35,539 nucleotides of DNA from an uncultured Candidatus Peribacteria bacterium (GCA_964636635.1 CAZWVP010000004.1:1-35539); one strand, 5' to 3'; counted from the first letter of the stretch, positions 2 through 33,859 are shown. The notes: a model not told the origin generated them from the sequence alone. A program made the numbers and translations.

Positions 2-3000
2 GTGGTAGGAGATATTGTCGTCGTCAGGCCGGGTGAAAAAATCCCCGTCGATGGCACGGTGATGAAAGGACTTACATCCGTCGATGAATCGATGCTTACG
101 GGCGAGAGCATTCCCGTCGAAAAGAAAGACGGAGATCGTGTCTTTGGCGCGACGATGAATGGGAATGGCAGCATCGAATTCAGAGCAGAGAAGATCGGCA
201 GCGACACCGCATTGGCACAAATCATCCGCTTCGTGGAAGAGGCACAGGGATCCAAAGCACCCATTCAGGCTTTTGCGGACTGGGTCTCTTCGTGGTTTGT
301 ACCCGCAGTCATAGGCATTGCGATTCTCACCTTCGGAGTCTGGATGTTTATCGGAGCGGGCTTTACCTTCTCCCTGCTTTCCGCAGTCTCTGTGTTGGTT
401 ATAGCGTGTCCGTGCGCTTTGGGACTTGCGACTCCCACGGCCATCATGGTTGCTACGGGAAAGGGAGCGGAAAACGGCATTCTTATTCGCGGAGGAGAGC
501 CACTAGAGGCTGCAAAGCGAATCAATACCATTGTGTTCGATAAGACAGGCACTCTGACTAAAGGCAAGCCTGAGGTAACCGATGTCGTTGCGCTCCATGG
601 GTCACAAGATGAGCTATTACAACTGGCTGCAAGCTTGGAGCAGGGGTCAGAGCACCCACTGGCAGAGAGCATCGTCAATCACGCCAAGGCAACAGGAATA
701 GCACTCAATACCGTTGAATCATTCAACGCTATTCCAGGTCATGGCATTGAGGCATCAATCAAGGGGAAGAAGTATTTCCTTGGTAACAGAAAACTCATGG
801 AGAAGTTTCAGATTGCGGTGCAGGAGATGGAGGAAAAAATGACGGCGTTGGAGGAACAAGGAAGGACAACAATGATTCTAGCCGATGAGAAACGTGTGCT
901 CGGCATCGTGGCTGTCGCGGACACGGTCAAAGAGACGACGAAGGAAGCCATTGAGCGGCTGCGAACGATAGGCATTGAAGTTTATATGATGACGGGAGAT
1001 AACAAGAGAACAGCAGCAGCCATCGCCAGGAATTTGGGTATCCAGAATGTGTTGGCAGAGGTACTGCCAGAGCAAAAAGCAAGCGAAGTGAAGATGCTAC
1101 AGGAGCAAGGGAAACGCGTCGCCATGGTCGGCGATGGTATTAACGATAGTCCAGCTCTTGCCCAAGCCGATCTCGGGATTGCTATGGGCAGCGGCACGGA
1201 TATTGCAATGGAAACGGGCGGCATCGTGCTCGTGAAGAATGATCTGCGGGAAGTCGTGACCGCGATCAAACTCAGCCGCGCCACCGTGAACAAAATTCAT
1301 CAGAACATGTTCTTCGCGCTCTTCTTCAATGTCATCGGCATTCCCATCGCCGCACGCGCCTTTCAGCATTGGGACATTGTATTGCGACCTGAATTGGCAG
1401 GGTTCGCCATGGCGTTCAGTTCGGTGGCAGTCGTGACGAACTCACTGCTCCTGAAGGGCTTCCACCCCACAAAGCGCAACTGGCTCTCGGACGTTGCCCC
1501 GGTTCTCATGGCCATAGGCTTCACTGCACTCTTCCTCGGCTTCGCCAAACTCAGTAGCGCAGAAACCACAGACATATCATCTGCAGGCCAAAACCTACCC
1601 GAAATCAGCCTCCATGCCTCTAATCTCTCCTCTCCCCTCACGCGCAATGCCGATGGGACAGTTGTGATCAAGCTGGAAACCCGAGAAATCGTCTCGGAAC
1701 TTGCTCCCGGCACGACCTATCAGTATTGGACCTACAACGGCACGGTGCCAGGCCCTCTCCTGCGCGTCCGAGAGGGTGACACCGTGGAGGTACAACTAAC
1801 CCATGCTGCGGAAAAAGAGGTATTTCAAGACATCAGTTTCGATCTCGTTCCAGCTGCTCTTGCAGATGGCGGCAAGACGGCAGACGCGCATGCAGATAGC
1901 GGCGCAGAACATGCTGCAGAAGGCCACGCCACCCACTCCATCGACCTCCACGCAGTCACGGGGCCCGGCGGTGGCTCGGTACTGACACAGGTGAAAGACG
2001 GTGAGACGAAGATCTTCCGTTTCACTGCAAACCGCCCCGGGGTATACGTCTACCACTGCGCGAGTCCCCATGTACCAACCCACATCGCGAATGGCATGTA
2101 CGGCCTCATCATCGTAGAACCCAAGAAAGGCTTAAAACCTGTCGATAAAGAGTTCTACGTCATGCAGGGGGAACTCTATACATCCGGCGCACTCGGAAGA
2201 AAAGGGCGTCAGCAATTCTCGCGTAAGAAGCTTCTTGCCGAAAATCCCGAGTACTTCATCTTCAACGGGCGGACGGGCGCACTCGCCGGAAGCGGCGCAC
2301 TTCGGGCAAACGTCGGCGAACGCATTCGTCTCTACGTCGGCGTCGGCGGCTTCGTCTCATCGAATTTCCATGTCATTGGTACAGTATTCGACAAAGTGTA
2401 TCCCGAAGGTGATATCACCTCCCCGCCGCTGCGCAATGTGCAGACAACCATCATCCCCGCCGGAGGGGCTGCCGTCGTGGAGTTCACGGTCGATGTCCCC
2501 GGTACCTACTTACTTGTCGATCACAGTCTGACGCGCTCCGTGGATCGCGGTGCGCTCGGCGAACTCATCGTCGAAGGACCACGGAATCCCGCCGTGTTCT
2601 CCGCCGTGAATCCCGATCCGAACCACACGCATGCCGATCTGGCGATGTGGGTAGAAGGGCAAAAAATCGATCTTTCTGCAGGGAAGTATATGCTGGATGA
2701 GGAATCGAACGACCCAGAAAAAGAGACAAATCCACATCTCCATGACGGGAATGGCCTTGTCATCCATCGGCACAAGGCCGGGCAATCCCTTGGTGAATTC
2801 TTGAATGCAATTGATATCAGCGCCACGAACGAGTGCATCACCCTCGATGATCAATCTCCGCTCCGCTCGGCCGAACTAGCTCCAAAAAGTGGCAGATCTC
2901 TTTGCAACGAAGACGCGAAACTCTGGCAAATGTTTATCAACGGTACTCAGCAGCCGCTCAATCCCGCTTACATCTTCCAAGATTTGGATCAGATTCTGCT

Positions 3001-3151
3001 GACATACGGTGCTACAGATGGACAAGTGGCAGAGCAGCTGCAATCGCTATCCGATGACGCCTGCTTGTTCTCCCAGACGTGCCCCGAGCGCGGAAAGCCC
3101 CCTGTGGAGAATTGCGTTTCTGATCCATCCATTCCTTGCGTCGAAGCATGA
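2..3151 (+). CDS. 5'-truncated P1B-type copper-translocating ATPase fused in one ORF to an extra TM helix, a NirK-like copper nitrite reductase module and a Cys-rich C-terminal domain
   Basis: The ORF is open from the window edge. ATPase motifs are TGES, CPC ([13 protein letters not shown], nt 407-415), DKTGTLT (nt 539), MTGDN and [10 protein letters not shown]. After the last ATPase TM (about aa 488) comes another hydrophobic helix, [24 protein letters not shown]. NirK signatures follow: [34 protein letters not shown] (Cys codon at nt 2057-2059) and [10 protein letters not shown]. No stop codon occurs anywhere between the modules. Confidence 0.88.
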
Positions 3152-4779
3152 TCCATTCATTTTTCCTCCTCACTCTCCATATGACTGCTCGCATTCTCCT
3201 CATCGGCTCCGCTCTCCTCACACTCACCGCCTGCGTTGCCGAAAACGACACAATGGGCGGGCATATGGGAGGCATGAATCACGGCGGCATGCAGAATCCC
3301 GGCAATGAGGAAGCGGTCTTCCTGGGCAGACCAACCGACATCTCTTCTCTGCCCGAAGCCAAGCCATCGGAAATCATCGAAGTGACCGAAGGGCAAACCA
3401 TCACCCTGCAACCCATGCTGGTGAAAAAAACCATCGGAGAGACGTCCTTGGCGATGTACGGTTACAACGGTCAAATTCCCGGTCCCATGATCCGCGCGAA
3501 ACAAGGCACCACCATCACCGTCGATGTGACGAATTCCATAGATATGCCGACGACCATTCATTGGCACGGCATTCGCCTGGAAAACAGCAACGACGGCATT
3601 CCCGACGTGACGCAAGCAGCCATTCAACCGAACGGTTCATTCCGCTATACGGTGGTTTTCCCGGATGAAGGCATCTATTGGTACCATCCGCATGTCCGTG
3701 AAGATATTCAACAAGATATGGGATTGTACGGAAACTTGCTGGTTCTGCCCGAAAGCCAAGAGGCCTATGCGCCCGTGAACGATACGCAAGTGGTGGTGTT
3801 GGATGATTTGCTGCTGAATGACAACGGCACGATCGTCCCCTACGGTTCCAAAACGGCAAATTTTGCCATGATGGGCAGGTTCGGCAACACCCTGCTTGTC
3901 AACGGCGATACTTCTTTCAAACGAACCGTACCGAAGGGTTCCGTCATACGTTTCTACTTTACGAACGTCGCCAGCGCGCGACCTTTCCGTTTGCAGATTC
4001 CGGGAGCAAAAATGAAACTCGTCGGTTCGGACGTGGGACGGTACGAACGAGAAACATTCGTTGACAGCCTCACTTTGGGCCCGGCGGAACGCGGCATTGT
4101 CGACGTGTACTTTGAACAATCCGGCACGTATGCGCTTCATCATGCAAGCCCCATCCGCACGGCGGATTTGGGCACCATCGTCGTAAGCGATGAGCCAGCC
4201 ACCCCTTCGTATGCCTCCGCATTCACCGCCTTGCGTTCGAACGACGATGTAGAAACGGACATCGATGCGTTTCGTTCATCTTTTGAAAAACCCGTCGACA
4301 AAACCCTGCGACTCACCATTTCCACAAACATGATGAACGGCATGGGCATGGGTCATGGCGGCATGATGAACGAGGAACTGCATGATGGCATAGAATGGGA
4401 AGACAACATGATGAACGCGAACATGCCCGGAGACATGCTGAAATGGGAAATGGTCGATGAAGAAACAGGCAAAAAAAATATGGACATCCTCTGGGAATTT
4501 ACCAAAGGAGACATAGCCAAAGTTCGCATCATCAACGACAAGACCTCCGCCCACCCCATGCAGCACCCCATGCATTTTCACGGACAGCGCTTTCTGGTGC
4601 TGAGCATGGACGGCAAGCCGACGGAAAACCTCGTATGGAAAGACACCGTGCATATTCCGGCCGGCTCCTCGGCAGATCTGCTGTTTGACTTCAGCAACCC
4701 CGGCGATTGGATGTTCCACTGTCACATCGCCGAACACCTGACGAATGGCATGATGGGCATGCTGCGGGTGAGGCAATAG
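3148..4779 (+). CDS. Multicopper oxidase (CueO/laccase-like), probable lipoprotein with Met/His-rich segments
   Basis: Copper-ligand motifs are HWHG, WYHPH, HPMHFHG and [14 protein letters not shown]. The signal peptide has a lipobox (LLTLTAC). Met/His-rich stretches are [13 protein letters not shown] and [13 protein letters not shown]...[10 protein letters not shown]. The ATG at 3148 overlaps the upstream TGA (ATGA). Alternative starts are TTG 3136 and ATG 3181. Confidence 0.9.
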
Positions 4780-12395: not shown

Positions 12396-12591
12396 GAAAC
12401 ACCTCCGTCTGTAGAAAAAAGGGTTAGCCGACGTTGTGAAAAATCAGATTTCCCACTCCTTTGCTGCGATACAAATGCAGAAAAGAGGGGTTGGGCAGTG
12501 TAGGGATTTGACGCAAAACTACAAGGGTGCAAAATGTTATTATCCAACAAAATGCTGGTATTCCCTGTTCGCAGGAGTATGCTTGGGCTAC

Positions 12592-13857
12592 ATGGAAACC
12601 GAACATTTGACATTTGAAGGACTCGGCATCATTCCCGAAATCCTCACGCTGCTGGAAAAACACAAGCTCCAGACCCCCACCCCCATTCAGTTGCAAGCCA
12701 TCCCTTCGGGCGTGGCCGGCAAAGACATCGTGGGCATCGCCCAAACGGGTACGGGCAAAACCTTCGCCTTCGGCATTCCGTTGGTGCAGAGGTTGTTCCA
12801 GTCTCCGGGTCGAGCGCTCATTTTGGCTCCCACGCGCGAACTGGCTTACCAAATCGCCGAATCGTTGGAACGCTTGGCTCGCCCGCTGCACATTGGCATC
12901 GCGGTGTTCGTCGGCGGCGCCAGCATGGAAAAGCAACGAGGAGACCTGCGCCGCAACCCGCGCATTTTGGTGGCCACTCCCGGCCGCCTGAACGACCACT
13001 TGGAACGCCGCACGGTGAGCCTGAAGGAAGTGAACGTGCTCGTGCTCGACGAAGCGGACATGATGCTCGACATGGGCTTTAAACCGCAAATCGACCGCGT
13101 GCTTTCGTACGTGCCCATGGAACGCCAGACCATGCTCTTTTCCGCCACCATGCCGAAGGAAATTCTGCAGTTGGCGCAAACGCAAATGCGCTTGCCGTTG
13201 AAAATAGAAGTGGCGCCTCCGGGCACGGGTGCGTCCACGGTGTCGCATGAACTCTTCATGGTGCAGAAAGACCAAAAACTCTCGCTGCTCGCACACTTGC
13301 TCACGGAAGAAACCGGCTCGGTGTTGGTGTTCTCCCGCACGAAGCACGGCGCCAAGCGCATCATGCAACAGGTGAAAGCCCTCGGGCACGCCGCGGCGGA
13401 AATTCACAGCAACCGTTCGTTGGCCCAGCGCCGCGAAGCTTTGGAAGGGTTCAAGCGCGGCACGTACCGCGTACTGGTTGCCACCGACATCGCGTCGCGC
13501 GGCATTCACGTCACGAACATCGCCATGGTGGTGAACTACGACTTGCCCGCCGCTCCCGACGACTACGTGCACCGCTCCGGCCGCACGGGTCGAGCCGGCC
13601 GCGAAGGCCGTTCCATCGCCTTTGCCACGCCCGACCAAGTGCGCGACATTCGCGACATCGAGCGCCTCATGCGCAAGCCGCTCCCCCGCGGAGCCCTGCC
13701 GGCGCATTTGCCCAAACCGAACATTTCCCTGCCGCCCGAAACCTTCGAAGGATTCCGCCCGCGCCGCCCGAGCGGCGGTGGAGGCAATCGCTTCGGCGGT
13801 GGCCGTTCCGGTGGCGGCCGCTCAAGCAGTGGCGGTGGCAGAAGGTTTTCCCGCTAA
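12592..13857 (+). CDS. DEAD-box ATP-dependent RNA helicase with a C-terminal RGG-rich tail
   Basis: Q motif (TFEGLG...PTPIQ), AQTGTGKT, DEAD, SAT and HRSGRTGRAG, with tail GGGGNRFGGGRSGGGRSSSGGGRRF. Alternative start TTG 12583 sits 5 nt after AGGAG. Confidence 0.92.
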   Translation: METEHLTFEGLGIIPEILTLLEKHKLQTPTPIQLQAIPSGVAGKDIVGIAQTGTGKTFAFGIPLVQRLFQSPGRALILAPTRELAYQIAESLERLARPLHIGIAVFVGGASMEKQRGDLRRNPRILVATPGRLNDHLERRTVSLKEVNVLVLDEADMMLDMGFKPQIDRVLSYVPMERQTMLFSATMPKEILQLAQTQMRLPLKIEVAPPGTGASTVSHELFMVQKDQKLSLLAHLLTEETGSVLVFSRTKHGAKRIMQQVKALGHAAAEIHSNRSLAQRREALEGFKRGTYRVLVATDIASRGIHVTNIAMVVNYDLPAAPDDYVHRSGRTGRAGREGRSIAFATPDQVRDIRDIERLMRKPLPRGALPAHLPKPNISLPPETFEGFRPRRPSGGGGNRFGGGRSGGGRSSSGGGRRFSR

Positions 13858-13872
13858 TTCCCGTTTCCCCCT

Positions 13873-13902
13873 TTGTCTCGTAGGGACGGTTTGCGGTATG
13901 GT
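13873..13902 (+). promoter_or_regulatory. Candidate promoter for the orphan two-gene operon
   Basis: TTGTCT (13873-13878), 18-nt spacer, TATGGT (13897-13902), 11 nt upstream of ATG 13914. No SD is visible, so the leader would be very short. Confidence 0.2.
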
Positions 13903-13913
13903 ATGCGACCACC

Positions 13914-15665
13914 ATGCGCATTTCCTCTTTCGACACGCTCCGCGAACGCAATACCGCAGCCGTCGCTCACAACGAGGCCAAAGCGGCCACAGCCAAGCCC
14001 GGCCGCACGCAAAACCGTTTCCACACGCGCATCCAAACGTTGCTCGGTCAACGTGTGGAACTGGAAAATTTGGCCAGCACCCAAGATGTGCGCGACGAAT
14101 ACGGCGCCGAAGCGTGGCATGAACGCTTCATACTCTTGCGTGAATTGCCGCCCGACGAACGTGATGCCGCTTGGCTTCAACTTGCCAAATCACACTATCG
14201 CCTGTTTCAAGAACTGTTCTGCCAACCGCACCAAGCGAGTGTGCCGCGTTCGCTTCCGAAACAGCCCGGCGGCGGCGAACGCCTGACGGTGGACGGTTGC
14301 CTGCCCAGTGCCGACCGGGTGCGTCCGGATTTACTGCTCGACGTGGGCTTGCTCACGAAAGACGAATGGGAGGAAGCCGAAACGCAATTGGACAAGCTGG
14401 CTCTCATCAAAAGCAAAATCCCCGCTCTGCAACACCTGTGGAACAACGCGGAAGATTTGGAGCCCGGCAACATGCGTTGGTTGGTGGTGAAGCAGGGTCC
14501 GCACGCCGAGCACATCGAGCCGCTGGAACCACGCGTGCCGGGCTCACTGCTCTACACGCGCGAAATGCACAGCGGAGACGAAGCCGCGTTCCACCTGCGC
14601 ACCGTCCAATACTTCCCCAACGCGCTTTCGGCCTACCGCAAAACCTGGCATCAGGAAGCGGCGTACCACGAAGAAACAGACTTGCTGATGGGCCTGCATG
14701 CGGAACTGGACATGCTGCGGACGCTTCTCAACGAAGAGTGGACGCGCAATGCGCCCGAAGAGCGAAAAGCGGAACTGCGCACGCACACGCAAGAAACCAT
14801 CGCCCGCTGGACGAAAGTGCTCGCTTCATGCACGAACAAGCACAAAGCGGAGTCGTATGAATTTTTGGCGAAAGCTCTGACGTTCGAAGACAAAACCGGC
14901 AAGCCGAACGTGTCGGTGGTCATGACGCGCATCACCGGGGCGCTCGGTCGCATAGAACCCAAACGCGGCAAGGAAATGACGGGCAAGAGCGGCTACAACC
15001 AGCGCGACCGTCAAGCCCTGCACCGCCGCATCGCTCAGGAAGAAGGTCGCCTGCTCTACTTCCGCCGCGCGGTGGAAGGCGCGGCTCACGAGTTCGAACG
15101 AAACCCGTCGGCCGACGTGCGTGAACGCCTGCGTCACGCCGTGTCGGCCCTGCGCACCATCGGCCTGGCACCGTTCAACGTGTGGGCGGAAAAACTGGCG
15201 CAGGAGCATGAAGCGCTTCTGCAAACGCAGGAACCCGCGGGCATTCGGGAAAAACTCGTTTCCTTGCACGTCATCGGCAAGTTTCAGGGACTCGTGTCGG
15301 ACATTGAACGCATGAAACTGTTTTTGGCGCAGGAAAAAGACTTGAACATTCCGCGTCTCATGGAATTCGCCGAACAGGTGCGCACGGCTTTCGGCACGAG
15401 GCAGGTGTTTCCCGCCGAAACCGTGGAAGCCCTTAAGCCCGTTTTTGAAACCTTATTGAAGGAAGTGGAGCGCATGGCCACGCGCCTGCAGCACTACCAA
15501 AAACATCCGCCCATCCGCGCCGAGCGTCGCGAGGTGAAGAAGAATTTGAAGAAGTTCCTGAATGGCCTGAACGTGGAAAGCTTGCTGTCGGGCAGTCACG
15601 CGTCATCGAATGAACACGCTCCGGTCCCGCCGGTTTCGCCCGCGGAAAAACCGGTGATATCCTGA
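13914..15665 (+). CDS. Hypothetical protein (583 aa, apparently cytoplasmic and helix-rich, no motif recognised)
   Basis: Long ORF with balanced amino-acid composition and GC-rich third positions, while the antisense ORFs are Arg/Gly/His-rich shadows. No signal peptide or TM. Confidence 0.75.
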   Translation: MRISSFDTLRERNTAAVAHNEAKAATAKPGRTQNRFHTRIQTLLGQRVELENLASTQDVRDEYGAEAWHERFILLRELPPDERDAAWLQLAKSHYRLFQELFCQPHQASVPRSLPKQPGGGERLTVDGCLPSADRVRPDLLLDVGLLTKDEWEEAETQLDKLALIKSKIPALQHLWNNAEDLEPGNMRWLVVKQGPHAEHIEPLEPRVPGSLLYTREMHSGDEAAFHLRTVQYFPNALSAYRKTWHQEAAYHEETDLLMGLHAELDMLRTLLNEEWTRNAPEERKAELRTHTQETIARWTKVLASCTNKHKAESYEFLAKALTFEDKTGKPNVSVVMTRITGALGRIEPKRGKEMTGKSGYNQRDRQALHRRIAQEEGRLLYFRRAVEGAAHEFERNPSADVRERLRHAVSALRTIGLAPFNVWAEKLAQEHEALLQTQEPAGIREKLVSLHVIGKFQGLVSDIERMKLFLAQEKDLNIPRLMEFAEQVRTAFGTRQVFPAETVEALKPVFETLLKEVERMATRLQHYQKHPPIRAERREVKKNLKKFLNGLNVESLLSGSHASSNEHAPVPPVSPAEKPVIS

Positions 15666-15675
15666 TCCCAATGCC

Positions 15676-16272
15676 ATGGAAGCCACGCACACCTGTTACG
15701 TCGGCATCAGCACACCGGATGAATCCGTCATTCCGTGGAAACGTGACTTGGAAAAACGTCCACACATCCCGGGAGACTTGCAAGACCCCGCCACCATCGA
15801 CTACATGGAACTGCTGATGGATCAACTCTGCGCCGAGCCGTCCGAAGCCGAAATAGAGCCGCAGACGTCCTATGTTTCGCAGCGCATCAAAGACTACCTG
15901 GAGCGCTGGCGCGACGTGCTGTATGCACTCACGGAAGAGTGCAAAATTCCGCTCGCGTGGGACTACGTGCCGAACTTGTCCCATACCACATCGGACTACC
16001 ACGACATCGTCGTCACCTTGAACCCCGCAAAACGTGCTCAAGAAGTGGAAACCATCTTCACGCAATGCCTGCGCAATCCGCATTTGGCGGTGGTGTTGGC
16101 ACAAGACGAGGAGCCTTCGGGCATGCTCGCCGAAGTGATGAAGCACTGCAACATCGCCTGCGAACGCATCATTCACCTGCCCTTCCAAGGCGGTTGGGAA
16201 GAAGGTCTGAAACGTACCGCCGCGCATTTGCTGAGCGTTTCCTACGTGCGCAAACACGGCCTGGCTTCGTAA
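15676..16272 (+). CDS. Hypothetical protein (198 aa), probably co-transcribed with 13914-15665
   Basis: Starts 10 nt after the upstream stop. Codon third-position GC bias is consistent with coding, and no motif was recognised. Confidence 0.7.
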   Translation: MEATHTCYVGISTPDESVIPWKRDLEKRPHIPGDLQDPATIDYMELLMDQLCAEPSEAEIEPQTSYVSQRIKDYLERWRDVLYALTEECKIPLAWDYVPNLSHTTSDYHDIVVTLNPAKRAQEVETIFTQCLRNPHLAVVLAQDEEPSGMLAEVMKHCNIACERIIHLPFQGGWEEGLKRTAAHLLSVSYVRKHGLAS

Positions 16273-17958
16273 CTACGCAGGTAGAAGCAAGCGACGCAAG
16301 GCGGGCAACATGCGCAGCTTGCCGCTTTCGCGAAGCAGTCGGGACTGCACGGTTTTGGACCGAGGTTGCGCCGGCGATTCCGAAAGCAGAGGCACGGAAA
16401 GCGCGGCCTGCAATTTGCCGGAATCTTGCAACACCTTGGACACGTCGGACATGCGCAAGGCCGAAAGCTCCGGCGAACGCTCCTCTCCCGAATACACGAT
16501 GGAATAGTCGTCGGGCAGAGTCGGATCCAAGGCGTCGGTGAGGGAAAGTGTTTTCGCTTGTTCTCGCAAAAGCTGGCCCGTCATGCCGTCGGCATAAAGC
16601 AGCACGTCCATGACGGTGGCGGGGTACAGCGCGGCGTCGCGGTGTTCCAAGAAGAGCAAAATCAGCTCGCCGCCCAGTTGTCTGCCGGGAAGCGTGGCAA
16701 TGCTCTGTGCCACTTCCGGCTCCCCCGTTTCCTGCAGAAGCTGCATCCACGCTTCCTGCATACGCGGCAAATACGTAATTTGTCCCAAGCCGCCCAAGCA
16801 GTGCAGGCCGTGCTCGAAACAGCAAGTCAGGAACGTCATGAGCGTGCTCGGCATGAGTTCGCGCCGGCGCAAACGTTCGGCTATTTCCGCTGGTGTGCAG
16901 GCAAAGCGCACGGTGCCGTCGACGGAGACCAGATCGTCTCCCTCCGGCCACAGGCTCACGCGGCGCTCTTCGGGAGTGATGTGCCAAAACAGGTACGTGC
17001 CTTTCTTCCGTTCGAACGAAAACGTTTCGGGCAAATCCGCGAACAATCTGCGGAAAGATGCCGCGTAGGCGGGGTCGAACAGCGTGCGGTACAAACGGCT
17101 CGTCGGTTCCGCACAGTGTTGCTCCGCAAGCAAACGAGCAGTGAGCGTTTCAATATCGAGGTACACAAGTTCTCCCGCCTTGCGCAAACCCAACGCCGAA
17201 CGCACCGCGCGCCACAAGTGAAAATTGCTTTTGGTCACTTGCTCCGTAAAACGCAGAGCCGTTTTGCAGACACCGCCGAAAATATTCCGCACGAAGTGCC
17301 CCAAGCGCTCGCGACCGAACGCATCGCTTTCCTGCTCCACTATGCGTGCGGCATTCTGCAAATCCGCTTCGCTGTACGCGCGGAAGTTGTACACGCACCG
17401 CGAACTGACGCTGTTGGGAAAAAGCGGAATGCGCACGGGCACGGCCGGCGTAGCCGAACTGGTATACGTGACGCCGCGAGGAAAATAGCAGTTGTTGAAC
17501 GACACGCTCGCATACGCCAATGAAATGTGATGTTTCAGCAGCGGATCCGGATGCTCGTCCATCACGAGCGACGCCAACATCGTGTAGTGCAACACCCACG
17601 GGTGGTGCAAGGGCCCGAAATGGTCGGTGGTGGAAGCGCTGTAGTATTTTTCCAGTTGCGCAGCGACCGACTTCGCGGTGGAGGCATCCAAACGCTCATG
17701 CACCAAATCCTTCACCGCGGCGATGAACTGCTTCTTGCGGATCTCCTCGCGCGGGGGAGGCGTGGGCACTGTCAGATAACTCTTCACGAAATCGTACGCG
17801 GACAAGTGCCCGCTCTCGCGCAAAAGCACATCGTACCCCACGCGACGCTTTCTCACGGCCTCACGCAGTGCCGTAACCGAAGTGGGCATCCCCGCTTGTG
17901 CGGGGAGTCGTAAGAGCGGGTCCTCGGGACTTGACACTGAAGTTGAATTGTTACTCAT
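16273..17958 (-). CDS. Hypothetical protein (561 aa), no motif recognised
   Basis: Long ORF with natural composition, while the overlapping plus-strand ORF 16366-17523 is an Arg/Gln/His-rich shadow. Its stop abuts the stop of the convergent gene at 16272/16273. Confidence 0.75.
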   Translation of the reverse strand: MSNNSTSVSSPEDPLLRLPAQAGMPTSVTALREAVRKRRVGYDVLLRESGHLSAYDFVKSYLTVPTPPPREEIRKKQFIAAVKDLVHERLDASTAKSVAAQLEKYYSASTTDHFGPLHHPWVLHYTMLASLVMDEHPDPLLKHHISLAYASVSFNNCYFPRGVTYTSSATPAVPVRIPLFPNSVSSRCVYNFRAYSEADLQNAARIVEQESDAFGRERLGHFVRNIFGGVCKTALRFTEQVTKSNFHLWRAVRSALGLRKAGELVYLDIETLTARLLAEQHCAEPTSRLYRTLFDPAYAASFRRLFADLPETFSFERKKGTYLFWHITPEERRVSLWPEGDDLVSVDGTVRFACTPAEIAERLRRRELMPSTLMTFLTCCFEHGLHCLGGLGQITYLPRMQEAWMQLLQETGEPEVAQSIATLPGRQLGGELILLFLEHRDAALYPATVMDVLLYADGMTGQLLREQAKTLSLTDALDPTLPDDYSIVYSGEERSPELSALRMSDVSKVLQDSGKLQAALSVPLLSESPAQPRSKTVQSRLLRESGKLRMLPALRRLLLPA

Positions 17959-25108: not shown

Positions 25109-26497
25109 ATGTCCTTCGTGACGCCCACCTTCCTGTTTTTCTTCCTGCCCCTCACGCTGGCCGGGCACACGCTGCTGCCGGCCTTCGCGCGCAACGCCTT
25201 TTTGCTATGCGCCAGCTTGCTTTTCTATGCTTGGGGCGAGCCTCGCCTCTGCTTGTGGCTGCTTGTAAGCATCGGCTTCAATACCGCAGTGTCTCACGCC
25301 ATCGTTCGCTCCCGTTCGCCGAACGTTTGGCTGGGTTTCGGCATTGTGACGAATGTGCTCGTGTTGGCGTATTTCAAATACACCGGGTTCCTGCTTTCCA
25401 CTTTTTCCCTTTCCTTCGCGGGGTTCGAGGTTCCGGCTCTGCCGCTCGGCATTTCGTTCATCACCTTCCATGCCATTTCCCTCCTTATAGACATAGCACG
25501 CAAGCCGGAGGCAGTCCGTCTGGGGGAAGTGGCGCTGTATTTCTGCCTGTTTCCGCAGCTCATCGCCGGACCCATCACCCGTTACCACCAAATCATCGGA
25601 CAAATTCGCGAACGCACGGTTTCGCTGCACGCGATGACGGAAGGCGTGGAACGGTTCATTGTGGGTCTCGCGAAAAAAGTGCTGTTGGCCGACATGCTCG
25701 GGCGCCTGACGGACGCCGCTTTTGCCGCACCGCCCGAACAGCTTTCCACCGCCATGGCTTGGGCGGGGGCGACGGCGTACGCCATGCAAATTTACTTCGA
25801 CTTCAGCGGCTACGCGGACATGGCCGTGGGTTTGGGACAAATGCTCGGGTTCCGTCTGCCGGAAAACTTCCGCCGTCCGTACCACGCCGCTTCCGTCACG
25901 GACTTCTGGCGCCGATGGCACATGTCGCTCACGGCTTGGTTCCGGGATTACGTCTACATTCCGCTCGGCGGCAATCGTTGCGGACTGCCGCGGAACATCC
26001 TGAACATCCTCATCGTGTTCACGCTCTCTGGCATTTGGCACGGCGCCAATTGGACGTTCATTTTGTGGGGGGCTCTGTACGGCGTGTTTCTCTCGCTGGA
26101 AAAAATCGCGAGCGTGCTGTTTGCTGCCCGCGAGCGGCCGCCCCTGCGGTCGCCCGCCTTCCGCTGCGCCGCCCATCTCTACACCTTGCTCGTCATTCTG
26201 TGTTTGTGGGTGCTGTTCCGCAGTCCGTCCGTTGCGTGGGCGACGGGCTACTTGCACAGCATGTTCACCGTTACGACGACGATGGATGTGAAAGGTGCCG
26301 CCGTCTCCTGGATGGTTCTGCCCGTGGCCGCCTGCTTGCTGTTGCCGGGATTTGACGGCGCCTACGCGCGACTCGAGAGTCTGGCGCCGCATGCCGCGCA
26401 TGCCGCGCGCCACGGCGCCATACTGACTTTGTTCCTCGCTTGCTTGATGGTGATTGCGGGTGAAACCTATCGTCCGTTTCTGTATTTCCAATTTTGA
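25109..26497 (+). CDS. MBOAT-family membrane O-acyltransferase (AlgI/DltB/PatA-like)
   Basis: FYAWGEP, GISFITFHAISLLIDI, AGPITRY, YFDFSGYADMAVGLGQMLGFRLPENFRRPY and FWRRWHMSLTAWFRDYVYIPLGGNR (catalytic His context). Confidence 0.92.
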   Translation: MSFVTPTFLFFFLPLTLAGHTLLPAFARNAFLLCASLLFYAWGEPRLCLWLLVSIGFNTAVSHAIVRSRSPNVWLGFGIVTNVLVLAYFKYTGFLLSTFSLSFAGFEVPALPLGISFITFHAISLLIDIARKPEAVRLGEVALYFCLFPQLIAGPITRYHQIIGQIRERTVSLHAMTEGVERFIVGLAKKVLLADMLGRLTDAAFAAPPEQLSTAMAWAGATAYAMQIYFDFSGYADMAVGLGQMLGFRLPENFRRPYHAASVTDFWRRWHMSLTAWFRDYVYIPLGGNRCGLPRNILNILIVFTLSGIWHGANWTFILWGALYGVFLSLEKIASVLFAARERPPLRSPAFRCAAHLYTLLVILCLWVLFRSPSVAWATGYLHSMFTVTTTMDVKGAAVSWMVLPVAACLLLPGFDGAYARLESLAPHAAHAARHGAILTLFLACLMVIAGETYRPFLYFQF

Positions 26498-26512
26498 ACC
26501 GAACGCTTCTTC

Positions 26513-27625
26513 ATGTTCCCCTCCCCGCACCATCGGCTGAGATCCGCGACGTTCTGCGCCATGTTTTTCCTGCTGCTCTTCACGGGGTTGAGCGGCATTC
26601 TGCGTCCGAGCGAAGAAACGCAGGAAAATCGCGCGCTCGCGCCGCGTCCGACTTTGGGCACGGACGCCGTGCTCTTGGACTATCCGCAACAATTCAACGA
26701 CTACGCCGCCGACCACTTCGGCGGACGCTCGTGGTTGGTGTTCGCCCTGAACACGTTCAAGCTGCGCGTCCTCGGCGTCAGCGGGCATCGCGATGTATTG
26801 GTGGGCAAGCAAGGCTGGTTGTTTTTGAGCGACGATTTGTTGGAGCGAGACATAGCGGGCGAAGCGCCGTTCACCGAAGACGAACTGCATCGATGGCAAA
26901 ACTATCTGGAAACACGACGGGATCGGCTGCGGGAAAAAGGCATCGACTACGTATTCATGATCGTGCCCGACAAGCACACGGCGTATCCGGAATTTCTGCC
27001 CGCCCGACTGCACCGCGACGGCCGAACCAGAAGGGAGCAGTTGACGGAACACATTTCTCAACGAAGCGATGTTCGCTTGCTCGATGTGACCGCCGACGTC
27101 TTTGCGGCCGATAAGCGACAACCTCTGTACTTCAAGCACGACACCCACTGGTCGGACGTGGCCGCGTACGCCGCGTACGTGCGCTTGGTACAACGACTGC
27201 AAACGCGACTGCCGGTGGGAAACGCCCTGACGCCGGATGCGTTCGACGTTTCGTTCGGCCCCGCTCCTTTGGCGGTATTGAGCCGGTTCCTCGGCATGGA
27301 AAACGCCCTGCCGGATGAATTCTCCTATGCCACGCTCAAGCCTGCGGAACCAAAAGCCACACTGACAACCATCGAAGAAGGCCAACGGGAAATTCTCCAA
27401 GGCCAAAACTCTCAAACACCGCTTACGCGCGCGTTGGTATACCGCGATTCATTCTTCGACCCGCTCGTGCCTTGGTTGGCAGAACATTTTTCCACAACCA
27501 CATTCATTCGCTGCCCGCAGGAACGCCTGTTGTCCGAAGACGATCTGCGGCGGTTCCGGCCCGATGTCGTCATTGAAGAAATCGTGGAACGAAAATTGCG
27601 CACGTTACCCGTCCCCACGCCGTGA
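26513..27625 (+). CDS. AlgJ/AlgX-like (DHHW-type, SGNH-like) O-acetyltransferase partner protein
   Basis: N-terminal anchor, IVPDKH and KHDTHWS motifs characteristic of AlgJ/AlgX-type proteins. It lies immediately downstream of the MBOAT gene. Confidence 0.8.
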   Translation: MFPSPHHRLRSATFCAMFFLLLFTGLSGILRPSEETQENRALAPRPTLGTDAVLLDYPQQFNDYAADHFGGRSWLVFALNTFKLRVLGVSGHRDVLVGKQGWLFLSDDLLERDIAGEAPFTEDELHRWQNYLETRRDRLREKGIDYVFMIVPDKHTAYPEFLPARLHRDGRTRREQLTEHISQRSDVRLLDVTADVFAADKRQPLYFKHDTHWSDVAAYAAYVRLVQRLQTRLPVGNALTPDAFDVSFGPAPLAVLSRFLGMENALPDEFSYATLKPAEPKATLTTIEEGQREILQGQNSQTPLTRALVYRDSFFDPLVPWLAEHFSTTTFIRCPQERLLSEDDLRRFRPDVVIEEIVERKLRTLPVPTP

Positions 27626-28344
27626 GAATCAGCTTCATTGTGCCGGCCCATAACGAAGAGGCATACCTTGCGGATTGCCTGAAGAGCATCGCACAATCCG
27701 CCGAAGGGCATGAACACGAAATTATCGTAGTGGATAACATGAGCACCGATGCAACGGTCCTGCTGGCAAAACAATTCCCCGACGTGCGCGTGCTCCAAGA
27801 ATCCAAGCGCAGCATCGCCGCGGTTCGTCAACGAGGACTGGAAAACGCCGTCGGCGACATCGTTGCCTCCGTGGACGCCGATTGCCGACTGTCGCCGCAG
27901 TGGGTGAACTATGCCGTGTCGCAATTTACCGCCGACCCGAAGCTGGTCTGCCTCATAGGCATGAGCGACTACTACGACATGCCCGCCTGGAAAAAATGGC
28001 TGAAACGCAACGCGGAGCGCTGCGCTCGCCGGTTGCAACGACTGCGCGGAGCGCGCGTCATACGAGCCAACGGCGGCAACACGGCGTATCGGGCTTCCGC
28101 TCTGCGGGCGGCGGGTGGGTTCGACAACGGCATTGCGCACTACGGCGAAGACGTGCAGGTGGCCATGTTGCTGCGCGCGCAGGGCATCGTTCGCTTCGAC
28201 ACGTCGCTCACCGCTCTCACTTCCGCGCGCCGTTTCAACCAGGAAGGTCTGCTGCGCGTGTTGCTTTTCTACAAAATAAACAGCATGTGGCAACAGTGTT
28301 TCGGCAAACCTCTCTGGTACGGCAATGCCGAGGTGCGTCGTTGA
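27622..28344 (+). CDS. Family 2 glycosyltransferase
   Basis: ISFIVPAHNEEAYLADCLKSI, IIVVDNMSTD and a DAD (DxD) motif. The GTG start overlaps the upstream TGA (GTGA). Confidence 0.88.
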   Translation: MRISFIVPAHNEEAYLADCLKSIAQSAEGHEHEIIVVDNMSTDATVLLAKQFPDVRVLQESKRSIAAVRQRGLENAVGDIVASVDADCRLSPQWVNYAVSQFTADPKLVCLIGMSDYYDMPAWKKWLKRNAERCARRLQRLRGARVIRANGGNTAYRASALRAAGGFDNGIAHYGEDVQVAMLLRAQGIVRFDTSLTALTSARRFNQEGLLRVLLFYKINSMWQQCFGKPLWYGNAEVRR

Positions 28345-28386
28345 GCGTCGTCGCATTCCCCTCTCACGCCACGTGCAGTAGACTCG

Positions 28387-29349
28387 ATGTGCATGAAACT
28401 GGGTATTCTCTTTCGTTCGGCCGTGGAAACGGGCATGCGCGCCGACCCTCGCGGGCCCGACGGCATCGCACGGTTTCTGCGCATGCGGAAAAAGCGCTCG
28501 ACCGCCGCCAAACAAACCGGACACCATGCACGCGGCGACGCCGATTGGAACCCGTACGCGGATTGCGCCGTTTTGCACGGCGGCGAAGACGTAAACGTTC
28601 GCACGCTGCTCGTAGGCATAGACACCGAAACACCCGAACTGCTCTTGGCGGACACGTTGCGCACGCAAGGCATGAAAGTGGACGCCGTGCTCGGGCACCA
28701 TCCCGAAGGACGCGCTCTGCTGGAGCTTTCCGAAGTGATGGACGTGCAGGTGGATATTCTCCGAGAGCTCGGCATACCGGAGCAAAAAGCCGAGATGATG
28801 CTGCGCAAGCGCACGAAACAACTCTACGGCCAACTGCACGCGCAAAACGCCCTGCGTACGGAACGCGCCGCACAACTGCTGGATATCCCCTTCCTCTGCG
28901 TACACAACGCCGCCGATCACTGCGCGGCGAAATACATCTATGACCGCGTGCTTCATGCGAAATACGACACCGTCGGCGACATCGTGGAAGCGCTGTACGC
29001 CGTACCCGAGTACGACCATTACGCACGCCAAGGCGTGCCACCTCTCATTGTGGCCGGAAGGAGTGATGCACGCGCGGGTAAAACCGCTGTCTTCGGTTTT
29101 AACGGCGGCACGGGCGGCCCCGCTGCCTTCATGCGCGAATTGGCAACGGCAGGAGTCGGCACCATTCTCTGCATGCACGCCTCCGCCGAGCAATGCGAAA
29201 TCGCCGACAAGCACCACCTCTCCGTCATTCAGTGTTGCCACATGGCCAGCGACACGCTCGGCATGAACCTCGTGCTCGACGCGCTGCAAAAAGAAGATTC
29301 CAAGCTCAAGATCGTCCCGTTTTCCGGCTTTGTGAGAATTGAACGCTAA
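28387..29349 (+). CDS. NIF3/DUF34-like dinuclear metal centre family protein (tentative)
   Basis: VDAVLGHHPEG (HHP block) and the C-terminal GTILCMHASAEQ...VIQCCHMASDTLGMN resemble NIF3 metal-binding blocks. The N-terminal region is atypical. Confidence 0.6.
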   Translation: MCMKLGILFRSAVETGMRADPRGPDGIARFLRMRKKRSTAAKQTGHHARGDADWNPYADCAVLHGGEDVNVRTLLVGIDTETPELLLADTLRTQGMKVDAVLGHHPEGRALLELSEVMDVQVDILRELGIPEQKAEMMLRKRTKQLYGQLHAQNALRTERAAQLLDIPFLCVHNAADHCAAKYIYDRVLHAKYDTVGDIVEALYAVPEYDHYARQGVPPLIVAGRSDARAGKTAVFGFNGGTGGPAAFMRELATAGVGTILCMHASAEQCEIADKHHLSVIQCCHMASDTLGMNLVLDALQKEDSKLKIVPFSGFVRIER

Positions 29350-31372: not shown

Positions 31373-31942
31373 ATGATCAAACACCTCTCCTGCGCCGCAA
31401 TTTTGGGTCTGGCTTGCCTGTCCCCCGCCTTTTCACACGCCGAACGATGGGTTTCCGCCGAAGACAAAGCCCAAGCGGAGTGCGAGGCTTCACTGAAACT
31501 TTCCCCCGAACAATTGCAGTCCGGCCTGCACCGCAACGAAGTGGCCATTTGCGTGCGCGGCAAAATTTTCGATGCCGATGTCGTCGATAAGCGCGACCGC
31601 ATCAGCCGTAAGACCTCACAGTTTTCCGGCGCCCTGCGCGTACGCGTACGCGACCAAGCGGAAGAAAGACTGATTGCCGAAGAGCGCGCCAAGGCATCGC
31701 TGCGAGCGCAGATGCTCGACCGCGCCACCATCAAAAAACGCCAAGCCACCCAGCAAGCCGGCGCCCGTTCCCGGGTGCGAACCGTGGAAGACTTCTCCAC
31801 GCGCGATTCCAAACGTGCGCAATCGCTTCGCTTCCGCGACTTGCAACAGCGAGCGCGCGACGCGTGTAAAACAGAGCCCCGCGGATTGAAAGATAACTGC
31901 GTCCGCGAGGCCCTGAGAGATTTGGGATCGAAACTGCCTTAG
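31373..31942 (+). CDS. Secreted basic hypothetical protein
   Basis: Signal peptide MIKHLSCAAILGLACLSPAFSHA followed by an Arg/Gln/Glu-rich helical region. The stop overlaps the stop of the convergent gene. Confidence 0.7.
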   Translation: MIKHLSCAAILGLACLSPAFSHAERWVSAEDKAQAECEASLKLSPEQLQSGLHRNEVAICVRGKIFDADVVDKRDRISRKTSQFSGALRVRVRDQAEERLIAEERAKASLRAQMLDRATIKKRQATQQAGARSRVRTVEDFSTRDSKRAQSLRFRDLQQRARDACKTEPRGLKDNCVREALRDLGSKLP

Positions 31943-33435
31943 TCTTCGATGTTGATGATCGCCGAGCTGGGCGTGGTAAGCGATACCCCCACCGGTGAAG
32001 TGAGGTTGAACGTCAGCGTTTCGATGGACGCCTCGTTGGAACCGTCCTGAGTGATTTTGACGAGCACTTCTTTGTTGGCCTCGCCGTTGCGGAACGTCAG
32101 GGTGCCGGAAACGCCCGTGTAGTCCGTGCCGCTCTTGGCCGTGCCGTCGGTGGTGCCGTAGCTCACCGTGGCCGTGCCGCTGGCGCCGCCCACGCGCTGA
32201 ATCGTCACCGCCACCGTTTCACCTTCGTACGCGTCGTAGCTGTCACGGGAAATTTTCAAGCTGCCGGAACCGTACTTGGCGGTTTCGTTGTCCACGATGG
32301 TGACGGAAGACTTCGCCGTACCGAGCACCGCACCGCCCGTGGGTGCGGAAAGCGTGAGGTTGAACGCCTTGTTGCCGCCGGTCGTCGAGTTGTCGGCCAC
32401 GATGACTTCGAACGTCTTGATGGTCTCGCCTTCGGCGAAGCTGAGCGTGCCGGAGACCGCCGAGTAGTGGTTGCCGTCGGCCGTGCCGTTGCTGGTGGCG
32501 TAATTCACACCCACCGCGCCGCTGGTGCCTTCCGTGCGTTCCACCGTAATCACCGCCTTACCCGACTGCTCGGACACGCTGTACACCACCGCAGAGAAGC
32601 CCAAGCGACCCTGGGAACCGGCGGCGGCCAAAGAACTGCTGGAGGACGAAGTGGCGGTGCCGGAGGTGGAGCCGCTGCTCGGCAAGCCGCCGTCGTTGTC
32701 CAAAATGTTGACGTTCACCACGTTGATTTTCCCGATGCCGGTTTCGCCGGTGGGGTTCTTGAGCTTCACCGTGAAACTCTCCTTGGCTTCGGGGTCTTTG
32801 TCGTTCTTCACGTTCACGTTGATGATCTTCATGGTTTCGCCGTCCGCGAAAGACAATTTGCCGCTGGTCTTGTTGTAATCCGTGTCTTCCAACGCCGTAC
32901 CGGCGACGGTTTCGTACTCGATGCTCGCGGTGCCGTCGCCACTGGCACGGACCACGGCAATGGAAGCATCTGGCGAACTTTCGCTGATGTCGAAGCTCTC
33001 TTTGGTGAAGCCCATGCCGCCGGACACGCCCTTCACGGACGTGGCCTTGCTCGAGCTGGAGGAAGACGAGCTGGAGGACTCCTCTTCATCTTCCTGCTCC
33101 TCTTCGGAGGAAGAAGAGGAAGACTTCACGCTGGAGGAACGACTGCTGCGGCTGGAGACCACGGGAGAAACGCCGCTGCCGCGAAGCAACTTGTCGTAAC
33201 GCATCATCACGGTGGCGAATTCGTCGCGCGTAATGGGCTGGCCCGCGCCGAACACGTCGCCGCGTCCGCGCATGAGGCCGTTTTCGTACACGAAGCGAAT
33301 GCCGTCCATGTGCGGACTGTCGGACGGAACGTCACGGAAAATGGCACGCAAATCCAACTGCGCGCTCACTTGCGTCACGGTGACGCCGAACGCCAAACCT
33401 ACGATGAAGACGGAAAGAAAATGTCGCATGGACAT
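31939..33435 (-). CDS. Cell-surface protein: signal peptide, one SLH-like domain, Ser/Glu-rich linker and three Calx-beta domains
   Basis: SLH-like block FRDVPSDSPHMDGIRFVYENGLMRG...PITRDEFATVMMRY. Three repeats each carry the Calx-beta signature (TA..DTDY...SGxLxFxxGExxKxxxV...D). The start is placed at ATG 33435 or 33429. Confidence 0.85.
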   Translation of the reverse strand: MSMRHFLSVFIVGLAFGVTVTQVSAQLDLRAIFRDVPSDSPHMDGIRFVYENGLMRGRGDVFGAGQPITRDEFATVMMRYDKLLRGSGVSPVVSSRSSRSSSVKSSSSSSEEEQEDEEESSSSSSSSSSKATSVKGVSGGMGFTKESFDISESSPDASIAVVRASGDGTASIEYETVAGTALEDTDYNKTSGKLSFADGETMKIINVNVKNDKDPEAKESFTVKLKNPTGETGIGKINVVNVNILDNDGGLPSSGSTSGTATSSSSSSLAAAGSQGRLGFSAVVYSVSEQSGKAVITVERTEGTSGAVGVNYATSNGTADGNHYSAVSGTLSFAEGETIKTFEVIVADNSTTGGNKAFNLTLSAPTGGAVLGTAKSSVTIVDNETAKYGSGSLKISRDSYDAYEGETVAVTIQRVGGASGTATVSYGTTDGTAKSGTDYTGVSGTLTFRNGEANKEVLVKITQDGSNEASIETLTFNLTSPVGVSLTTPSSAIINIED

Positions 33436-33490
33436 GATGAGAATTGGTAAGAGACGGGTGCCAGCATACCCACCTTGAACGTTGAGCGGG

Positions 33491-33859
33491 TCATTTTTGC
33501 GCTCTCTCGGCAAGGGAAATATTCACCTGCGCGGGCGGAGGAAAAGCCTGGTTGTCGACTGTGGTCGGAACCTGCAAACCGTCGCAAACGCGGCCGTACA
33601 TGCGTCCGAACATCATGCGAATGCCATCGCCGTGCCGCTGCACGAAGGCCGTGCAACCGGCATCGCCGATGAGCACGATGTGCTCCGGGCGTTCGCACCG
33701 GCCCACCGTAAACGTCGCCTGCAGCAGTACGCCCGGCGCGCAGGCCTGCAAACGCTCCCGCAACAACCCCACGGACACATGCAATTCGTTCGCCAAAGCA
33801 TGCAACACCTCCGGGGCGGGATGAGATGCATGCGGAGATTCGACGTAAGAGCGCAACAT
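33491..33859 (-). CDS. Hypothetical protein (about 122 aa)
   Basis: The composition looks protein-like, unlike the overlapping 213-aa Arg-rich frame. No motif was recognised and no SD was seen. Confidence 0.45.
   Translation of the reverse strand: MLRSYVESPHASHPAPEVLHALANELHVSVGLLRERLQACAPGVLLQATFTVGRCERPEHIVLIGDAGCTAFVQRHGDGIRMMFGRMYGRVCDGLQVPTTVDNQAFPPPAQVNISLAERAQK

Follow-up and report, generated by a model that had tools for sequence, protein, structure and literature searches.

A copper-transporting P1B-ATPase and a NirK-type nitrite reductase in one open reading frame of Candidatus Peribacteria

The fusion gene and its parts

The gene described here lies at the very start of a contig from an uncultured Candidatus Peribacteria bacterium (GCA_964636635.1, CAZWVP010000004.1:1-35539; this whole stretch of 35,539 nucleotides is referred to as the window). 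A single open frame at 2..3151 on the plus strand, closed by a TGA at 3149-3151, encodes 1049 amino acids (aa), in which the core of a Cu-type P1B-ATPase is followed by a ninth hydrophobic helix, a complete copper nitrite reductase (NirK) and a 177-aa His/Cys-rich C-terminal domain. The 5' end of this open reading frame (ORF) is missing, the contig end cutting the frame at nucleotide (nt) 2 of the window. An earlier note, made from the sequence, had claimed that one ORF joins a Cu-exporting P1B-ATPase to NirK. This observation is confirmed, as frame, motifs and profile scores agree and all the motif positions and residue numbers given at that time are exact in the translated ORF. The fusion, the additional helix and the copper ligands all stand, and what had been overlooked was the truncation of the ORF, the domain at its tail, a His-rich insert in NirK, the residues FN in helix M5 of the pump and the catalytic His790. 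The parts are as follows:

2..271, plus strand: actuator (A) domain, truncated at its 5' end (Pfam E1-E2_ATPase, aa 2-157); TGES at nt 98-109
284..481, plus strand: helices M3 and M4 (hydropathy peaks 2.33 and 2.35); CPC at nt 407-415
521..1291, plus strand: cytoplasmic phosphorylation and nucleotide-binding domains (Pfam Hydrolase, aa 174-390); DKTGT at nt 539-553 and GDGINDSP at nt 1130-1153
1304..1456, plus strand: helices M5 (N-x6-FN-x4-P) and M6 (MAFSS, that is, M-x2-SS), from motif reading
1457..1483, plus strand: short basic cytoplasmic loop from M6 to the ninth helix, KGF-H/R-P-x-K/R-K/R-N-W being kept in all fusions
1484..1555, plus strand: ninth transmembrane helix (TM9), aa 495-518, mean hydropathy up to 1.85
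1556..1600, plus strand: linker of ~15 residues, beginning with a conserved Ser-Ser-Ala (possible signal peptidase I site), with in-frame indels only between species
1601..2617, plus strand: NirK-type copper nitrite reductase of two cupredoxin domains (TIGR02376; alignment to NirKs in the PDB)
1814..1927, plus strand: acidic/His-rich insert of ~38 aa (aa 605-642) in NirK domain I, just before the first type 1 copper (T1Cu) ligand, splitting the match to solved NirKs
2618..3151, plus strand: extracytoplasmic C-terminal domain ('C-ext'), aa 873-1049 and the stop codon, with HTHAD, HLHDG, HRHK and six Cys

The pump half

Searches with hidden Markov models (ATPase/HAD, the NirK TIGRFAM and the cupredoxin Pfams), which the earlier note had proposed as a check, recovered both halves of the protein by their own families. 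For the pump, Pfam matched E1-E2_ATPase at 8e-56 and Hydrolase at 1e-40. The NCBIfam model of heavy-metal P1B-ATPases (TIGR01525) gave 616 bits against a cut-off of 346, and that of the Cu subfamily (TIGR01511) gave 546 bits against 397, the truncated N-terminus notwithstanding. The cut-off of the E. coli CopA equivalog PRK10671 was not reached (510 versus 1316), which is expected for a distant and partial sequence. The ATPase motifs are found at aa 33-36 (TGES), 136-138 (CPC), 180-184 (DKTGT) and 377-384 (GDGINDSP). In the metal-site signature of P1B-1 pumps, CPC and MAFSS are present and M5 has FN where YN is canonical. This FN (window 1304-1345) is common to the window, its closest relatives and some stand-alone pumps that also have nine helices, and the canonical YN is retained in fusions of a second subtype, type B (loci L002, L004 and L025). 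Full-length orthologues have ~255-285 additional N-terminal residues, which make up an HMA domain (GMHCxSC) and helices MA, MB, M1 and M2; in L017 and L021, Pfam searches confirmed the order HMA-ATPase-NirK.

P1B-ATPases have eight helices and both ends in the cytoplasm, and in the CopA structures the chain ends there after M6. The pump of the window departs from this layout in that a ninth helix follows M6. Compared with the P1B-1 CopAs of Legionella pneumophila, Archaeoglobus fulgidus and E. coli, it shares the N-terminal HMA domain (seen in the orthologues), TGES, CPC, DKTGT, GDGIND, M-x2-SS, the eight-helix core, a Cu-subfamily score above the curated cut-off and a place in a copper-homeostasis gene cluster, whereas the ninth helix, a C-terminus predicted to lie outside with 530 extracytoplasmic residues and the Phe for Tyr in M5 set it apart. 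The pump is CopA-like, and its topology is non-canonical.

The NirK module

The NirK equivalog model TIGR02376 was exceeded by the whole protein (310.7 bits) as well as by its C-terminal part (313.4 bits; cut-off 296.3), and Pfam recognized the two cupredoxin halves as Cu-oxidase_3 and Cu-oxidase_2. The best-matching solved structures are NirKs, at ~1e-93 (6THE; AniA 5TB7/1KBV). Residue-level alignment to solved NirKs assigned His645, Cys686, His694 and Met699 to the T1Cu site and His650, His685 and His841 to the type 2 copper (T2Cu) site. These ligands and the catalytic Asp648 (HSIDLH) had been read by eye with exact numbering, and the alignment adds His790 (FHVIG) as the second member of the catalytic pair. 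The copper ligands and catalytic motifs are conserved in 20 of the 21 fusion loci found in other genomes (see below); the remaining one, L022, is without the FHxIG motif bearing the catalytic His. In that locus part of NirK domain II is gone, this motif included, and the gene may be decaying.

The acidic/His-rich insert, to which no Pfam family matched, occurs neither in solved NirKs nor in type B fusions, and is present in the lipoprotein NirKs P0005, P0012 and P0015. A comparable insert was also seen in P0026, a NirK fused to a DsbD-type domain.

Among the closest solved relatives (3e-93) is AniA, the class II NirK of Neisseria gonorrhoeae (1KBV, 5TB7), with which the module shares all copper ligands and catalytic residues. 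AniA, an outer-membrane lipoprotein, is likewise tethered to the membrane via its N-terminus. The tether in the window is instead a transport-ATPase helix in the cytoplasmic membrane rather than a lipid in the outer membrane, and the His-rich insert and the C-terminal domain are additional. The three- and four-domain NirKs of Hyphomicrobium denitrificans (2DV6), Ralstonia pickettii (3ZIY) and Bradyrhizobium (6TFD) likewise combine a sequence-related NirK core with fused accessory domains. However, those domains are electron donors (cupredoxin or cytochrome c), whereas the N-terminal partner here is a metal pump, and the tail is without a cupredoxin or haem signature, without CxxCH, and matched neither a Pfam family nor, significantly, any fold or profile in the PDB. 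Because its extra domains are not electron carriers, the fusion falls outside the three-domain NirKs as these are usually defined. Each half of the protein is a clear member of a known family, the caveats on the side of the pump being the ninth helix and the Phe for Tyr in M5.

The ninth helix and membrane topology

The earlier note had placed the ninth helix at about aa 494-516, and the hydrophobic stretch, of 20-24 residues, was located at ~aa 495-518. Its GFTALFL is invariant in the five sequences of one alignment (A1) and substituted in a few of the wider set. The basic loop that precedes it has an equivalent in L017 with 3 Lys and Arg per 13 residues, and the NirK fold begins at ~aa 534 (alignment to residue 9 of 6THE). 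Because an additional helix follows M6, the topology would be N-in with nine helices and the C-terminus out, and the ninth helix is predicted to put all downstream parts on the outer face of the cytoplasmic membrane.

That NirK lies outside, as had been proposed from the extra helix, is borne out by several features. A positive-inside bias was observed in the full-length L017, in which Lys and Arg account for 20 of 102 helix-flanking residues inside and 2 of 56 outside. Unfused homologues consisting of NirK and the tail domain start with lipoboxes (LLLTAC in P0005, FLLTAC in P0012), stand-alone tail-domain proteins start with signal anchors or lipoboxes, and the Cys-rich tail is accompanied by DsbA-like genes nearby. 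TM9 also has features of a signal peptidase I substrate, namely an n-region KRNW and a conserved Ser-x-Ala at -3/-1, with a core of ~18 residues that is longer than usual.

With regard to the cell envelope, peptidoglycan, S-layer proteins and sortase A are reported for Peribacteria from their genomes, and an outer membrane is not mentioned in that description (PMC4736985); a protein with an SLH domain is also encoded within the window. The 'cell without a periplasm' assumed in the earlier note is reasonable for such a member of the Candidate Phyla Radiation (CPR).

The C-terminal domain

No Pfam family matched the tail domain even at E<=10, and a profile search against PDB sequences gave no match. 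The AlphaFold (AF2) model was of good quality by its scores (pLDDT 81.5, pTM 0.80); Foldseek of this model against the PDB found nothing significant, the best E value being 0.1 with weak beta-grasp-like matches only. We identified 148 homologues, mostly stand-alone proteins of ~200 aa. Six His are invariant across the family (HTHxD, HLHD, HRHK), and of the C-terminal Cys one is invariant and three are kept at >=90%; the motif string of the family includes ...HLHDGNG.VIHRHK...C..C..C..C. Stand-alone tail genes adjoin an HMA gene, or share an apparent operon with a cupredoxin gene near a DsbD_2 gene (L085 5001-5564; L087 2116-2739), and in P0126 and L038 the domain is fused straight to the pump without NirK. 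Its occurrence fused to the pump alone, and in the neighbourhood of HMA and cupredoxin genes, makes an accessory role in copper binding the most likely one for the tail domain. A widespread and uncharacterized family of His/Cys-rich extracytoplasmic domains, linked to copper genes, is thereby flagged.

Conservation of the junction

In the first homology search, two metagenomic proteins (P0001 and P0002) crossed the junction at 84% and 75% identity, and two contigs of metagenome-assembled genomes from NCBI (L002 and L004) read through it in one frame; in L002 the gene call was split, and 'NirK' seemed to begin inside the ninth helix. An alignment of the junction alone was then run against GTDB representatives, one genome for each species. 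The full junction was present in one frame in 21 genomes labelled Candidatus Peribacteria, Peregrinibacteria or Patescibacteria group, so that the survey for the same domain order that had been suggested places it in 21 species, all of them Peribacteria/Peregrinibacteria within the CPR. By stop-to-stop ORFs and segment-wise searches, 12 fusions of 1156-1324 aa were closed at both ends, nine of which (1281-1324 aa) have the C-terminal domain and three (1156-1167 aa) do not.

Against nine orthologues, the ratio of nonsynonymous to synonymous differences (pN/pS) was 0.15-0.22 for the ATPase, 0.19-0.53 for the helix plus linker and 0.09-0.24 for NirK, it being noted that synonymous sites are near saturation. 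On these ratios the junction is under purifying selection, and the claim that no stop or frameshift lies between the modules held in all 21 genomes. The open frame and its conservation show that both enzymes would be translated as one chain and, as judged from sequence comparison, that selection has maintained this architecture throughout the class Peribacteria.

Some genomes contain two members of the family. L013 and L021 are fusions from one genome, L019 (a fusion) shares its genome with L052 (a plain nine-helix pump), and L004/L024 has the fusion plus a separate lipoprotein NirK with a tail domain. L052 and L080 had been considered as fusions with an insertion and were left out of the count; each is a nine-helix pump and a separate lipoprotein multicopper oxidase (MCO) whose N-terminal cupredoxin domain is NirK-like.

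When the whole fusion was searched against representative sequences, the best 150 entries included none with both domains, since at 50% identity the clade is merged by clustering and matches to the ATPase alone predominate. Exact full-length fusion proteins are in fact already in public databases, under the name 'Cu+-exporting ATPase' (a JGI entry) or 'hypothetical protein' (OGJ57893.1 and relatives). Since the annotation names one half or none, the second function may be overlooked or wrongly counted in gene-based surveys. As the earlier note had supposed, the architecture was not found described in some 8 million open-access papers and preprints, subscription-only literature being outside this search.

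The copper island and the nine-helix pump clade

The gene that follows the fusion is:

3181..4779, plus strand: Met/His-rich lipoprotein MCO of three domains, with an LTLTAC lipobox (Pfam Cu-oxidase_3, Cu-oxidase and Cu-oxidase_2)

Against the CueO model this protein scored 163 bits, which is under the cut-off. The gap between the fusion stop and its ATG is 29 nt and contains no terminator-like site, and the two genes are probably in the same operon. In most related loci an MCO is likewise found downstream of the pump, as part of a conserved co-directional island consisting of an HMA-DsbD_2-cupredoxin membrane protein, one or two DsbA-like proteins, the pump, the MCO and DUF305, sometimes with a CDF transporter and small proteins between pump and MCO. 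The pump holds the same slot in this island with or without NirK, and it is the general copper exporter of the island, not a specialized metallation paralogue. With the CopA2/CcoI/FixI ATPases it would share the concept of a pump in the cytoplasmic membrane that supplies Cu(I) to extracytoplasmic cuproenzymes (PMC8475189, PMC8456105). However, those systems and that of CutO use separate proteins and soluble or membrane chaperones, whereas one fused chain is present here without a cbb3-oxidase context; the neighbourhood contains HMA-DsbD_2-cupredoxin, DsbA, CDF, MCO and DUF305 genes and no cco genes, so that the pump is not placed in the CopA2/CcoI/FixI group.

An exhaustive search of representatives and the genome scan revealed that the ninth helix marks a clade of CopA-like pumps with a varied external C-terminus:

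C-terminus ending right after TM9 ('...FAKISS*'): L052, L063, L064, L069, L080, L081, L084
tail domain alone after TM9: P0126, L038
second His-rich domain ('domain X') after TM9: P0121
tail domain plus domain X after TM9: P0122
repeated unknown domain after TM9: P0149, P0157, P0162
beta-propeller after TM9: P0124
alpha/beta hydrolase after TM9: P0148
NirK after TM9: the window and the 21 fusion loci

Neither Pfam nor the PDB gave a match for domain X. In loci whose pump stops at TM9, the next gene often encodes a lipoprotein version of a module, which is the MCO in L052, L063 and L080 and domain X in L064. The same modules are thus either fused to TM9 or encoded as lipoproteins right after a pump that ends there, and the pump has evidently been joined to, and split from, the extracytoplasmic proteins encoded downstream of it on repeated occasions.

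Some further observations concern these loci. In the nine-helix pump P0157, Trp stands at every position where Gly is expected (WDWINDSP for GDGINDSP); here UGA was translated as Trp and the lineage probably reads it as Gly, a recoding of the Gracilibacteria/Absconditabacteria type. Therefore, the nine-helix clade reaches CPR groups of that type. Upstream of the pump in most of L008-L025 (for example, L017 4375-5793 and L023 6169-7515) is the island's HMA-DsbD_2-cupredoxin protein of ~470 aa, with a cytoplasmic HMA, a DsbD_2 membrane domain and an extracytoplasmic cupredoxin. This protein could carry electrons or copper from one side of the membrane to the other, and is a candidate for the missing electron donor of NirK. 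A recurrent alternative set downstream, consisting of DUF2933, a BNR-like protein of the F510_1955 family and a ~154-aa protein without family match (L004/L024 2280-3830; L025, L038, L018), stands in the place of the MCO in several loci. In Parcubacteria (for example, Wolfebacteria), closely related NirKs of ~705-776 aa are fused N-terminally to a DsbD/CcdA-type membrane domain (PF02683; P0026, P0028, P0048, P0050, P0057, P0058, P0067, P0072, P0076, P0078, P0084 and L029), which is a second, independent tie of NirK to a multi-pass membrane protein in CPR.

Elsewhere in the window (12424-17958, 25205-29289 and 31939-33513) are several ORFs of 426-735 aa without Pfam match and one surface protein with SLH and Calx-beta domains, which is consistent with the large extracellular proteins reported for Peribacteria. 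The AT skew flips over the minus-strand blocks at 25-27 kb and 32-33 kb, and no tRNA or Rfam match was found in the whole window.

Proposed copper loading, anchoring and alternative explanations

On balance, we consider it probable that the gene encodes one chain of HMA domain, CopA-like pump, TM9 anchor, NirK loaded at the copper exit and accessory tail. The chain would be inserted by the Sec pathway, with NirK folding and trimerizing outside the cell, and the two copper ions of each NirK subunit would be acquired there because folding and trimerization occur outside. Without an outer membrane, copper released by a pump and a soluble enzyme would both be expected to diffuse away, and because of such loss TM9 may act as a permanent anchor in place of the lipid anchor of the unfused homologues. 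It would keep NirK within a linker of ~15 residues of the pump exit, where exported Cu(I) could load it; the same Cu(I) probably also loads the neighbouring lipoprotein MCO, and the His-rich tail domain most likely assists as a copper-binding accessory. The individual parts differ in strength: anchoring of NirK beside the copper exit of the pump is well supported, and a direct hand-off of copper from pump to NirK is plausible. E. coli CopA passes Cu(I) directly to the periplasmic CusF, and, to our knowledge, the copper supply of NirK has not been tied to any specific pump so far. In Rhodobacter capsulatus, maturation of the multicopper oxidase CutO is reported to need the CopA efflux pathway (PMC8456105).

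Several points weigh against this scheme. The direct passage of copper is a step that we infer from sequence. Some cargo of the clade has no evident role in copper handling (the alpha/beta hydrolase of P0148 and the beta-propeller of P0124), so TM9 may be a general anchor, and simple anchoring could explain the fusion because the same clade bears modules without an obvious link to copper. In other CPR bacteria NirK is held at the membrane by a lipobox or by a fused DsbD/CcdA-type domain, so that what these lineages share seems to be the need for an anchor rather than a position near a pump. NirK forms obligate trimers with T2Cu between subunits, and three pumps must therefore pack round one trimer on linkers of ~15 residues. 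The conserved Ser-Ser-Ala at the end of the helix would fit cleavage by signal peptidase, so that the mature protein may no longer be tethered. The pump, moreover, is a general exporter of the island and not a dedicated partner of NirK, and the Tyr-to-Phe change in M5 of the window's subtype may bear on transport.

These points lead to other explanations. That a missed stop or frameshift merely joins two neighbouring genes is vanishingly improbable. Among the related contigs, L002 does have an in-frame TAA in a poly-A run within the ATPase N-domain (nt 515-535), and in L001 (nt 1-330) the similarity to ATPases begins abruptly after unrelated sequence, suggesting a chimeric contig or a truncation. 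Both defects, however, lie away from the junction, and an assembly artefact is excluded because 21 independent assemblies at species level, produced in different studies, all read through the junction in one frame while differing in sequence and by in-frame indels. A somewhat unlikely case is that loss of a stop codon in a compact copper island joined the pump to a downstream lipoprotein gene, the fusion persisting because TM9 replaces the lipid anchor, with no hand-off and with copper taken from the medium as by any exported cuproprotein. Fused and split forms of the same gene pairs do occur among close relatives, some cargo domains are unrelated to copper, other CPR bacteria tie NirK to unrelated membrane domains, and genes overlap or abut in compact CPR genomes. 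On the other hand, the recurrent partners are mostly copper proteins or His-rich domains (NirK, MCO, tail domain and domain X), and an advantage beyond accident is suggested because the fusion has been kept in 21 species and two structural subtypes, with two paralogous fusions in some genomes. Anchoring of this kind would in any case leave metallation possible, merely making it unnecessary.

We regard as unlikely that the ORF encodes a polyprotein, in which TM9 would be an internal signal peptide (n-region HPTKRNW, core of ~18 residues, c-region AKLSSA) and cleavage by signal peptidase I after Ser-Ser-Ala would free NirK, leaving a nine-helix pump like the stand-alone ones; all that the fusion would then secure is co-expression, a 1:1 stoichiometry and co-localized export. 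Ser-Ser-Ala (or Ser-Asn-Ala) is indeed kept at the helix end in aligned fusions, and the stand-alone nine-helix pumps stop exactly there. There is also a precedent in the FbcH cytochrome b-c1 precursor of Bradyrhizobium, which is cleaved at an internal signal sequence after an eight-helix membrane protein. Both ORFs combine an eight-helix membrane protein, a hydrophobic segment and an exported redox domain, whereas cleavage is a fact for FbcH and only a possibility for the pump-NirK fusion. However, the freed NirK would be unanchored in a cell without an outer membrane, and every unfused homologue examined has a lipobox or a membrane anchor. The hydrophobic core of ~18 residues, which is flanked by Asp498 and Lys517, exceeds the usual length of a cleaved signal peptide and has that of a signal anchor. 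In addition, Ser-Ser is also kept in pumps ending at TM9, which have nothing to cleave, and need therefore not be conserved for cleavage. Finally, it is very unlikely that the NirK-like module serves copper detoxification, for example by oxidizing or sequestering exported Cu(I), instead of nitrite reduction. The gene lies in a copper-homeostasis island beside a CueO-like Met-rich MCO, no NirK-specific electron donor or NO reductase was seen within the window, and NirK is a member of the multicopper oxidase superfamily (PMC7558416). But the module exceeds the curated NirK equivalog cut-off, keeps the Asp648/His790 pair specific to nitrite reduction along with all copper ligands, and is without a trinuclear cluster.

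Significance

Little is understood of the way in which NirK and other exported copper enzymes obtain their metal. In the consulted sections of a 2020 review of bacterial copper homeostasis, nitrite reductase is listed only as a periplasmic cuproenzyme and no delivery route is named (PMC7558416). A conserved fusion of exporter and enzyme is 'Rosetta-stone' evidence that pump and NirK work jointly, and provides a self-contained construct in which pump-dependent metallation can be tested biochemically and structurally. Our analysis also exposes a modular clade of nine-helix pumps and an uncharacterized family of copper-linked domains. Tentatively, CopA in Peribacteria and related CPR could be viewed as a modular 'export-and-load' platform, in which interchangeable clients (NirK, the His-rich beta-grasp-like copper-binding domain and the second His-rich domain) are attached, through gene fusion and fission, to a C-terminus that TM9 exposes at the copper exit, and Cu(I) passes to them directly without a soluble chaperone; we hold this broader idea to be possible but doubtful. 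If it is true, this would be the first natural covalent complex of a pump and a cuproenzyme, together with two new families of extracytoplasmic copper-handling domains. The fusion shows how bacteria without a periplasm hold a usually periplasmic enzyme and its metal supply at the membrane, and extends what little is known of nitrogen and copper metabolism in the CPR.

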